64,000 nt of DNA from a virus. Under the pieces are notes generated by a model that was not told the DNA's origin, ran no database searches, and saw nothing but the letters and a program-made list of their open reading frames with translations. This document shows, piece after piece, positions 14,353 to 15,300 of the stretch (its first letter is position 1; each line of letters opens with the position of its first letter). Position numbers and translations under genes: made by a program. Where the stretch lies: the IMG/VR virus record IMGVR_UViG_3300037961_006825, positions 1 to 64,000 of that record, one strand, 5' to 3'.

Positions 14353-14652
14353 CTATTTTTTATTTTCCACCTGGGGTAAAGTAGAATCCGACGATAGCTC
14401 CCAGAGTGGCGATCGAGACAAGAGAAATGTGTCCCGTTGTGATAACCGTTGTGATATCGCTCCCGGAGGGGAATTTAACAAGTCCCCAAAGGAGGGTGAA
14501 GGCTTCTTTTGATTCGGGAGGGGTGAATGTGACCAATTCGACTCCTGGGAAGAGGGTGCAGAGAACTGAAATGACTGCGAAGTTTGACATCCCGATAAGA
14601 GCAATAAGCCTACGAGTATGACGGGTAAACATACCATGGTCTGCATTAGCAT
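14353..14652 (-). CDS. overprinted lipoprotein (candidate o-spanin) in the +1 frame of the holin-like gene
   Basis: MLMQTMVCLPVILVGLLLLSG-C lipobox, then Pro/Ser-rich domain; frame open back to 14883; start uncertain (14652/14646/14637 or 14844). Confidence 0.55.
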   Translation of the reverse strand: MLMQTMVCLPVILVGLLLLSGCQTSQSFQFSAPSSQESNWSHSPLPNQKKPSPSFGDLLNSPPGAISQRLSQRDTFLLSRSPLWELSSDSTLPQVENKK

Positions 14653-14839
14653 CACCAAATACCGCTTTTTGAAAATCCACGTCTGCTTTATGCATTGCCA
14701 TGTCTCTAACGAGCTCTCGTTTAGCAGCGGTTTCTTTAGCTGCTGTAATGCCTTGGAAAACTCCTCCAAGTATTTTAAGCATAGAGCCCATACCGGTTGC
14801 ACCAAGCGTTGATAATAACATTGTAATAAGTCCTGACAT
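14360..14839 (-). CDS. holin-like 3-TM membrane protein
   Basis: Hydrophobic N-terminus, coiled segment, TRRLIAL-TM, C-terminal AIVGFYF; resembles 3TM phage/GTA holins. Confidence 0.6.
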   Translation of the reverse strand: MSGLITMLLSTLGATGMGSMLKILGGVFQGITAAKETAAKRELVRDMAMHKADVDFQKAVFGDANADHGMFTRHTRRLIALIGMSNFAVISVLCTLFPGVELVTFTPPESKEAFTLLWGLVKFPSGSDITTVITTGHISLVSIATLGAIVGFYFTPGGK

Positions 14840-14864
14840 ATCATTTTACTTCCAAAAAACTGTA

Positions 14865-14878
14865 TATAAATATTTATA
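14865..14878. promoter_or_regulatory. palindromic back-to-back late promoters
   Basis: TATAAATATTTATA gives TATAAATA on both strands between the divergent holin and Nudix operons. Confidence 0.6.
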
Positions 14879-15300
14879 TGCAAATGCCAAGTTTCAAACT
14901 CTTATTCGAACGACCTAAAAATGATAGTAATTTATCAGCTAAAACTATAGCAACTTATAGGAAAAGAATATTGCTTCTTAAAAATAAAGATAACTCTTAC
15001 GAATTACCTGGTGGTCACGTAAAGATAGGAGAGCCTATAATTGCAGGAGCTACAAGAGAGTTTTTTGAAGAAACTGGTATTCAATTATATAAATTAAAAC
15101 TAATAAAAAAATCAAAAGAACGTGCATTATTTTATGCAAGCTTAAATACTAATATAGTTAAATTAAGTGATGAGCATGTTGGGTATGTATTTGTAAAACC
15201 AAGTGAAGTATTCATATATCCTTTATCACCTAAAGCTAGAAATGATTTAAAAATAATTAAAAAAGAGAAAAAACAAAAAAAAGATGAAATGGAATTTTGA
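14878..15300 (+). CDS. Nudix hydrolase
   Basis: GGHVKIGEPIIAGATREFFEETGI Nudix box; LSDEH; second Met (14884) is the likely start. Confidence 0.88.
   Translation: MQMPSFKLLFERPKNDSNLSAKTIATYRKRILLLKNKDNSYELPGGHVKIGEPIIAGATREFFEETGIQLYKLKLIKKSKERALFYASLNTNIVKLSDEHVGYVFVKPSEVFIYPLSPKARNDLKIIKKEKKQKKDEMEF

Follow-up and report, generated by a model that had tools for sequence, protein, structure and literature searches.

Embedded genes for outer-membrane spanins (o-spanins) have been reported to start at 0.4-0.5 L and to end at 0.9-1 L of the host gene, where L is the length of that gene, and a disordered Pro/Ser-rich tail is typical of the Rz1-type proteins (Kongari et al., PMC6139136). The o-spanin gene is always found within, or next after, the gene for the inner-membrane spanin (i-spanin) (PMC12894885). 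For marine T4-like phages near the pelagimyophages and Melnitz the lysis genes are essentially unknown; the paper on Melnitz mentions no holin, refers to a spanin only for lambda, and speculates that curli pores could be involved (PMC9004378). Here we analyze a 64,000-nucleotide stretch of viral DNA, positions 1 to 64,000 of the IMG/VR record IMGVR_UViG_3300037961_006825, which is referred to as the window. On its minus strand a gene for a three-helix membrane protein, referred to as the host gene, carries a second open reading frame (ORF) in the +1 frame. This nested ORF extends over the host gene from 0.39 L to 1.0 L and encodes a hydrophobic export segment, a lipobox and a Ser/Pro-rich tail, and comparison with more than one hundred related genes indicates that it is very probably a real gene under selection.

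In the window, the +1 frame of the host gene contains no stop codon across 159 codons, as a first-pass annotation made from the letters of the window had already pointed out, while approximately 16 would be expected. Synonymous redraws of the host codons from the codon usage of the window gave an expectation of 6.2 stops for host codons 1-62 and 10.1 for codons 63-146, and none of 1500 redraws was free of +1 stops in either part. The frame encodes the hydrophobic stretch followed by LLSG-C (MLMQTMVCLPVILVGLLLLSGC) and then, counting the Cys, 78 residues with 18 Ser, 9 Pro and 8 Gln, so that the lipobox and the Pro/Ser-rich domain of about 77 residues described in the annotation are indeed present. 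The host gene is a GC island with a GC content of 0.458 against 0.301 for the AT-rich window, and 0.40 against 0.15 at third codon positions. Its 17 Leu codons include 9 CTT, 4 CTC and only 2 TTA, although TTA accounts for 67% of the Leu codons in the other genes of the window, and all 29 Leu, Ile, Val or Met codons standing before a codon that begins with A or G avoid a +1 stop. Both the elevated GC content of the overlap and the use of CTT instead of TTA, with its avoidance of +1 stops, had been noticed from the sequence before, and both were recovered in these counts.

When the redraws were taken from the gene's own biased codon pool, which is a stricter null model, an open frame was obtained with P = 0.09-0.23 for the window alone. 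One could therefore imagine that there is no second gene at all, and that the open frame and the conserved nucleotides described in the following result from amino-acid composition, the codon bias of a highly expressed GC-rich gene, RNA structure or an internal regulatory site; in all clades the GC content of the gene exceeds that of its genome, which in itself lowers the number of stops. Since the stricter null gives no firm result for the window alone, it is the comparative evidence that decides whether the nested gene is real.

Database searches with the host protein gave 393 homologues at 67-97% identity, and 93 clusters at the 50% identity level. From the subfamily to which the window belongs 80 loci were retrieved (67-97% host identity; 68 distinct genes), and from a second subfamily, with 40% identity to the protein of the window, 48 loci (34 distinct genes); the combined set over the two subfamilies consists of 103 distinct genes. 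More distant homologues are referred to by their locus numbers, namely L132 (58% identity), L134 (37%) and L136-138 (30%), plus L133 and L135.

The nested part, comprising a start codon, the hydrophobic stretch, the lipobox Cys and some 55-80 Ser/Pro/Gln-rich residues, is kept in all 103 distinct genes of the two subfamilies. Not one of the 103 carries a stop inside the ORF, where 6-12 would be expected from the codon usage of the flanks in the window's subfamily. None of the 68 distinct homologues in that subfamily has a stop between the internal start and the point where its own ORF ends, which in six cases comes 8-18 codons early, and the number of +1 stops per host gene is bimodal (0-1 or 5-10), with the stops confined to the first approximately 70 codons or to positions past a conserved motif, ...SPLWE. 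Genes of the short type, in which the nested ORF begins at the internal start, have 1-8 stops in their N-terminal half compared with 4-8 expected, and 0 in the nested ORF compared with 6-10 expected. Members of the second subfamily carry 0-7 stops ahead of the nested ORF, one sequence being free of them, and no stop within it, apart from five genes that end early. The openness of the whole frame, which holds for the window, is consequently not a trait of the family, as only the 3' part (approximately 85 codons in the window's subfamily) is generally open. In the distant loci L132, L134 and L136-138 (30-58% identity) a nested ORF was found as well, and it begins with a classic signal peptide, for example MKQGSKYLKTMLAAGLVLGLVGC.

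A synplot-like profile of observed over expected synonymous change in the host frame was calculated from all pairs of the 68 distinct genes. The ratio is 1.1-1.3 over host codons 1-70, reaches its lowest values (0.34-0.5) at codons 78-86, where the hydrophobic region and the lipobox are encoded, remains at 0.8-0.97 over codons 87-127 and at 0.86 over codons 141-146, which hold the SPLW motif (0.37 at A144 and 0.41 at T145), and is approximately 1.15 past codon 150. The second subfamily (34 genes) serves as an independent replicate; there the ratio is 1.2-1.35 upstream of the +1 start, falls to 0.7-0.8 across the start and the signal peptide and to 0.5-0.6 at codons 97-103, and exceeds 1.1 beyond the +1 stop. 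It is clear that the boundaries of the suppression coincide with the nested ORF in both subfamilies, and that the dips fall at the +1 start, at the signal peptide and lipobox, and at the motifs. Within the SPLW motif P61 and L62 are at least 90% conserved, and 50 of 60 sequences contain P[LI]W. Thus both signs of selection that the first-pass annotation had proposed to look for, conservation of the frame with its lipobox and suppressed synonymous variation, were found among the homologues, L133 and L135 being without the nested ORF.

The position of the lipobox adds an argument of another kind. The Cys lies over host residues M84/S85 in the window's subfamily and over R77/L78, approximately 6 codons earlier, in subfamilies 2 and 3, and because this position shifts between subfamilies the order of a hydrophobic run followed by a Cys cannot be a side effect of host-frame conservation. 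Composition would leave the moving lipobox, the signal peptide and the Shine-Dalgarno motifs unexplained. Nor would the lack of a second gene account for short-type genes whose N-terminal half carries the expected stops, with none between the conserved start and the conserved end, or for suppression boundaries that match the ORF in two subfamilies, and an Rfam search gave no relevant family match over the region. We regard the absence of a second gene as highly improbable, and take the alignments as evidence that two genuine protein-coding genes occupy the same DNA at this locus. The +1 frame was also considered as the older of the two genes. This was rejected, since the host frame is highly conserved and its AlphaFold2 (AF2) model has a pLDDT of 82, compared with a low-complexity, predicted disordered +1 product with a pLDDT of 56.

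Turning to the initiation of the nested gene, nearly all homologues have an ATG, GTG or TTG at the internal site, approximately 17-32 codons before the Cys. Subfamily 2 has AGGGAGG 9 nucleotides (nt) before the internal ATG and a podovirus-like clade has GGAG 9 nt before its ATG; the GC-richer relatives have an internal ATG of their own, in many cases preceded by a Shine-Dalgarno motif, and the AGGGAGG/GGAG motif of these clades is built from rare host codons. Among the relatives compared, the N-terminal half is open only in the AT-rich clade of the window. All 32 distinct homologues with an open N-terminal half have a +1-frame ATG at -5, -8 or -14 (one at -44) relative to the host ATG, and the other 36 have no such upstream ATG and run into a +1 stop no later than nt 67, in nearly all cases by +10/+13. 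The upstream ATG of the window (14844-14842, context AAAATGATATG) precedes the host ATG by 5 nt and the long ORF ends 7 nt past the host stop, making the overlap complete. Gene callers call this long ORF on occasion.

In the gene tree the long type forms one clade of 31 members plus L075. It therefore represents one or two transitions only, and the association between the upstream ATG and the open frame has little statistical weight. The stronger argument is maintenance within the long clade, where the subclades differ at 50-65% of their N-terminal synonymous codons and the start has shifted among -5, -8 and -14, while each of the approximately 30 diverged members has 0 stops in the N-terminal half against 4-8 expected. 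Synonymous differences in this half are approximately 25% lower in the long clade (0.47 and 0.35) than in short-type genes (0.61 and 0.48), and the non-overlapped tail, which served as a control, gave 0.525 in the long clade and 0.521 in the short type. What is maintained in the N-terminal extension is its start and its open frame, and no selection on its sequence is claimed.

The long clade comprises the AT-richest phages (flank GC 0.28-0.37) and is devoid of internal Shine-Dalgarno motifs; internal start codons are retained in most of its members, often as TTG or GTG only. In one long-type subclade the preceding gene ends in a TAA that runs directly into the upstream ATG (TAAATG), a layout that may invite translational coupling, and relative L020 has GGAGG at the position where the window has GGAAG (Table 1). 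This distribution of start signals suggests that, with falling GC content, initiation of the nested gene was switched from an internal start to an additional ATG close to that of the host gene. In the case of the window, the first-pass annotation had placed the start of the ORF at 14883, but the TTG found there is a mechanical start only. It lies upstream of the late-promoter-like motif TATAAATA and is therefore unlikely to be carried on a late transcript, which leaves ATG 14844 and the internal cluster at 14658-14637 as plausible starts. The same annotation had added two caveats, that a longer product from 14844 was possible and that the short form lacked a basic n-region; the first turned out to describe a key feature of the window's clade, and the second is correct, as no Lys or Arg follows the internal starts. 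For this reason the 163-residue product from 14844 is best supported, possibly beside a short form, and from the reading of its start signals the product of the window is likely 163 residues long and in complete overlap with the host gene.

Table 1 Features of the nested-gene locus in the window.
Feature	Position	Strand	Basis or remark
Host gene, 159 codons	14360..14839	-	ORF list
Long +1-frame ORF, 163 residues and TAG stop	14353..14844	-	Translation
Mechanical ORF as listed	14353..14883	-	ORF list; start TTG at 14883
Internal start cluster	14635..14658	-	TTG 14658, GTG 14655, ATG 14652, 14646 and 14637; over host F-G-D-A-N-A-D-H codons
Signal-peptide-like segment MLMQTMVCLPVILVGLLLLSG (short form)	14590..14652	-	Sole membrane-spanning helix if the long form is made
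Lipobox Cys codon TGT (L-S-G-C)	14587..14589	-	Cys invariant in 60 aligned mature sequences
Predicted mature lipoprotein, 78 residues, 35% Ser+Pro, predicted disordered	14356..14589	-	Translation; AF2
Conserved S-P-L-W motif near the lipoprotein C-terminus	14401..14412	-	Alignment
GGAAG, Shine-Dalgarno-like	14849..14853	-	Sequence reading; 4 nt before ATG 14844, 9 nt before host ATG 14839
TATAAATA, T4-late-promoter-like motif	14871..14878	-	Motif match only; 26 nt before ATG 14844
TATAAATATTTATA, perfect 14-bp palindrome	14865-14878	both	Contains TATAAATA facing both ways, also towards the plus-strand NUDIX gene
Downstream 115-residue gene	13988..14335	-	One N-terminal membrane helix, rest mostly hydrophilic; i-spanin-like in layout only

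The lipoprotein character of the product was assessed with a strict rule of the PROSITE PS51257 type. It is passed by 69 of the 103 distinct genes, and LLSGC of the window fits the lipobox pattern. At +2 all 60 sequences have one of S, V, Q, A, L and R, and never Asp. Scans of the nested protein, the host protein and the neighbours against Pfam and PHROG returned coiled-coil noise only. In the AF2 model of the long form, residues 45-88 make up one long helix and residues 87-163 have a pLDDT below 50; the N-terminal extension is predicted as two helices of moderate confidence, followed by the disordered tail.

These features have to be weighed against a reading in which the +1 product is not lipidated, being either a signal-anchored single-pass inner-membrane protein with its N-terminus in the cytoplasm and its tail in the periplasm, or a secreted peptide; in the window's clade the 163-residue form would then be the principal product, if not the sole one. 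The long helix at residues 45-88 would suit this reading, as would the lack of a basic n-region in the window's short form, the conservation of the long-form start together with a fully open frame, the atypical LLWGC found in one long-type subclade, and the lack of internal Shine-Dalgarno motifs in the AT-rich clade. It would not explain why a Cys after the hydrophobic run is kept in spite of its shifted position relative to the host frame, why two thirds of the genes pass the complete lipoprotein rule, or why most long-type members retain internal start codons. Taken together we find this reading quite unlikely, and conclude from the signal sequences that the nested product is probably a lipidated lipoprotein. 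In the 74-kb record from which the window is taken, the only other ORF that passes the strict rule and has a long mature part (267 residues) is a CsgG-like gene at 9284-10135 of the window (MIKNLILAFSLFFIAGC).

The host protein is predicted by AF2 to contain helices at residues 2-49, 51-61 and 68-96, strands within 101-134 and a helix at 135-154, giving three long hydrophobic helices with a small four-stranded sheet, in a loop of approximately 35 residues, between helices 2 and 3. From the charge distribution its N-terminus is inferred to face out and its C-terminus in, which would place the sheet in the periplasm. No relative was found in Pfam, PHROG, PDB or BFVD, and Foldseek comparisons of the host protein with PDB and BFVD returned no match with E under 0.3. 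Names at the top of the BFVD list included spanin/Rz-like proteins; these were dismissed, since TM-scores of approximately 0.2 are meaningless.

The first-pass annotation had taken the host gene for a holin gene, and this was not supported. The PF11351 (GTA_holin_3TM) profile matched neither the protein of the window nor 46 family members, even with E up to 10, and the same model found nothing in the 74-kb record. Only the five residues TPGGK follow the last helix, leaving hardly any of the charged C-terminal tail typical of holins. A protein-language-model search listed a cluster with 14% PF11351 members at rank 18, which is a weak lead only. The host gene is furthermore far more conserved than holins and spanins usually are, with 70-97% identity between phages with different flanks. 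A host homologue with 44% identity is located at 5001-5480 in L133, a 111-kb bacterial contig from an Opitutales metagenome-assembled genome (GC 0.55-0.65), where it carries no nested ORF and ends a Mu-like row of portal, protease and capsid genes. The element in L133 is possibly a prophage or resembles a gene transfer agent (GTA), and is the only pointer to a cellular host lineage.

The source record has a CheckV completeness of approximately 34% and contains T4-type capsid, portal and baseplate-hub genes; the phage is a marine T4-like phage with a large double-stranded DNA genome. The closest deposited capsid genes are those of cyanomyoviruses, with only approximately 33% identity. With the host protein as query, a tblastn search of 50,697 deposited phage genomes gave no match, and hence no cultured anchor phage, and viral-contig scans with P0132 and P0176 gave no loci. 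Contigs of two RNA libraries cover relatives of the gene; as DNA carry-over is possible and the contigs do not tell which frame is read, they were not counted as evidence of expression.

Several related clades have TATAAATA or a similar motif upstream of the gene. Over the window as a whole the motif shows no enrichment, with 23 occurrences found and 26 expected. On the plus strand the end of TATAAATA precedes the ATG of the NUDIX gene (14878) by 5 nt and would there give a leaderless or near-leaderless late mRNA, and a spacing of 5 nt between the motif and the ATG of the host gene is also seen in L022-L024, L033, L035, L042 and L061. Opposite the GC-rich host gene, the plus strand has several ORFs of 64-72 residues (14406-14621, 14618-14812 and 14700-14918), which are probably by-products of the unusual composition.

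The 115-residue gene downstream of the host gene has one N-terminal hydrophobic helix, in agreement with its earlier description as a single-membrane-helix protein, and no Pfam hit. As an i-spanin it is a poor candidate, being confined to this lineage. It is missing in L002, although the host protein of L002 is 97% identical, it has 9 homologue clusters compared with 393 hits for the host gene, and it is placed downstream instead of upstream. More generally, small membrane proteins adjoin the locus in 31 of 68 cases by a strict hydrophobicity test, compared with 18.5% of other ORFs, which is a modest enrichment. A pair of genes for 94-residue membrane proteins adjoins the locus, directly downstream, in 45 of 81 related loci. 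In the window itself, paralogous small membrane proteins encoded at 8211-8492 and 8495-8812 head a curli-type operon; the first is 50% identical to the 94-residue protein and the second is a weak match (18% identity, E 2.3e-6). The nested-gene locus and the curli-type module are often linked.

In the podovirus-like clade a 127-residue protein with an N-terminal helix and a coiled coil is encoded directly upstream of the locus, after the terminase gene. Within L064, L067 and L077 the host gene is found a few genes past a T7-like large terminase gene, and CTACTATAGGGAGA, which resembles a promoter for a T7-type RNA polymerase, lies approximately 25 nt upstream of it. Since this clade carries the gene, the family is common to T4-like and podovirus-like marine phages. 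In L136 (approximately 4480-4659) and L138 (4471-4641) the host gene is followed immediately by a gene for a holin-like protein of 56-60 residues, with two hydrophobic helices and a short charged C-terminus; these loci belong to the most distant subfamily in which the nested lipoprotein is still present. The host gene of L133 and L136 lies among head and tail genes. L022-L024 have a 73-residue gene directly downstream of the host gene that begins MLSKLI.F.LA.TVV(A/G)C and continues into a coiled coil, and this may be a second lipoprotein with its own lipobox.

With regard to function, we consider that a two-gene locus with a lipidated outer-membrane product in a spanin-like lysis role is the best explanation of the data as a whole, with roughly an even chance of being right in all its parts. 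In such a scheme the older host gene would provide a conserved three-helix inner-membrane protein, and the +1-frame gene a precursor consisting of a hydrophobic export segment, LLSG-C and a disordered Ser/Pro/Gln-rich tail of approximately 78 residues with the SPLW motif. A late transcript would begin at the TATAAATA motif, and ribosomes choosing ATG 14844 or 14839, and perhaps also the internal starts at 14658-14637, would produce both proteins. The +1 product would insert into the membrane by its hydrophobic segment, be lipidated at the Cys and cleaved, and, having no Asp at +2, be sorted to the outer membrane. Its extended tail could then reach a partner in the inner membrane, which might be the protein of the host gene or a small membrane protein encoded next to it, and the lipoprotein would assist in opening the outer membrane at lysis in the manner of Rz1-type o-spanins. 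The last step, an outer-membrane role in lysis of the spanin type or in the envelope with an inner-membrane partner from the same locus, is proposed by analogy and we hold it to be plausible at somewhat less than even chances.

Several observations count against this proposal or parts of it. The host protein is not an i-spanin, having three hydrophobic helices and a beta-sheet loop where an i-spanin has a single N-terminal helix and a periplasmic coiled coil, and contrary to the published rule (PMC12894885) no cognate i-spanin was found at the locus. The small membrane-protein genes that adjoin it are not homologous between clades, and their enrichment is, as mentioned, modest. Beyond the lipid-anchor Cys, the mature part contains no Cys in the window and none in 42 of 60 relatives; the 115-residue neighbour has no Cys either. 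The endolysin models PF00959, PF01464 and PF13539 found nothing in the 74-kb record, which is a fragment of approximately 34% of the genome and gives no evidence of absence. The nested gene is absent from the distant loci L133 and L135, and the failures of the lipoprotein rule are mostly due to LLWGC in the one long-type subclade and to Gln or His at -3 in part of subfamily 2. As for the window's own product, the short form has the unfavourable n-region described above, and in the long form approximately 65 residues separate the export segment from the N-terminus, an unusual arrangement for a lipoprotein signal. Every invariant residue of the N-terminal extension is imposed by the host frame, so that no selection at the amino-acid level can be claimed, and the only signatures of the extension are its start codon, its freedom from stops and the approximately 25% reduction in synonymous change.

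Some of these points would fit a nested gene that is real and exported, but does a job outside lysis, such as receptor masking or superinfection exclusion (T5 Llp, Cor-type), or acting as a periplasmic regulator or assembly partner of the three-helix protein, for example in connection with the curli-type module. The unusually high conservation of the host gene (70-97%) could be seen in this light, together with the lack of an endolysin nearby (three models, 74-kb record), the lack of spanin-type periplasmic cysteines, the position among head and tail genes in L133 and L136, and the 94-residue membrane-protein pair, which adjoins 45 of 81 loci and has its counterpart at the head of the curli-like operon at 8211-8812. 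A late-promoter motif, however, suits the timing of lysis or assembly and not that of early exclusion, the small holin-like and coiled-coil neighbours and the site after the terminase gene in the podovirus-like clade resemble lysis cassettes, and a disordered Pro/Ser-rich tail is typical of Rz1-type proteins (PMC6139136). A function outside lysis appears to us rather unlikely, and the spanin-like role is the one we retain. A bolder version of it, in which the three-helix protein and the overprinted lipoprotein constitute an unrecognised two-part envelope-spanning device that replaces spanins in abundant marine phages, must be called a long shot; the AT-rich clade would then use two ATGs 5 nt apart and approximately 160 double-coding codons to make two +1 isoforms, a long one with its anchor in the inner membrane and a short one that is an outer-membrane lipoprotein, and one overprinted frame would supply both ends of a periplasmic bridge.

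The locus is of interest on several accounts. A conserved, unannotated lipoprotein gene present in more than 100 genomes of uncultured phages is a concrete candidate for the outer-membrane step of lysis, and we found no publication on a nested lipoprotein gene in a membrane-protein gene of this kind. It is an exception to the working assumption that any gene with a lipoprotein gene nested in it encodes an i-spanin, which affects automated spanin finders and annotation. The clade of the window presents a rare complete overlap of two genes of approximately 160 codons in a large double-stranded DNA phage, with competing starts 5 nt apart, and the switch from an internal Shine-Dalgarno motif and ATG to an upstream ATG with falling GC content offers a natural system for studying the evolution of overprinted genes.

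Among known systems, lambda Rz/Rz1 and T7 gp18.5/gp18.7 resemble the locus most closely. They too have a small lipoprotein gene lying wholly inside a membrane-protein gene, in the +1 frame and over its last approximately 60%, a short Pro-rich unstructured mature part with an outer-membrane sorting signal, and late expression in phages whose hosts are Gram-negative. The likeness to Rz1 proposed in the first-pass annotation thus applies to position, frame and composition. Of its idea of an o-spanin nested in a holin, the nested lipoprotein-type gene stood, the holin identity was not supported, and the o-spanin function is suggested by analogy only. Unlike the lambda and T7 pairs, the host is here a three-helix protein in place of a single-pass coiled-coil i-spanin, the sequences show no similarity, the protein of the window has no periplasmic Cys, no adjacent endolysin or holin could be identified, and in the window's clade the nested ORF covers the entire host gene and starts 5 nt upstream of it. 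The nested gene is accordingly Rz1-like in layout but not assignable to the two-component spanin family, because the host protein does not qualify as an i-spanin.

T4 PseT.3/PseT.2 belongs to a related morphotype, as judged from the T4-like capsid, portal and baseplate hub, and an outer-membrane lipoprotein component would be expected from it; the T4 genes are however separate and adjacent, with a canonical i-spanin, and no homologue was recognised here. PF11351 (GTA_holin_3TM) and class I holins share with the host protein the small three-helix design and the inferred N-out/C-in topology, but the profile is negative, the cytoplasmic C-terminal tail has only 5 residues and the conservation is far higher. 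T5 Llp and Cor-type proteins are likewise small phage-encoded outer-membrane lipoproteins, but they stand alone, act on receptors and are not nested. Finally, phiX174 E within D and MS2 L are comparable as +1-frame de novo genes with a hydrophobic segment laid over an older, well-folded gene in a complete overlap. Those are single-gene lysis proteins of tiny phages and have no lipobox, whereas the nested gene described here belongs to a large T4-like double-stranded DNA phage and overlaps its host gene over approximately 160 codons, compared with 91 codons for phiX174 E.

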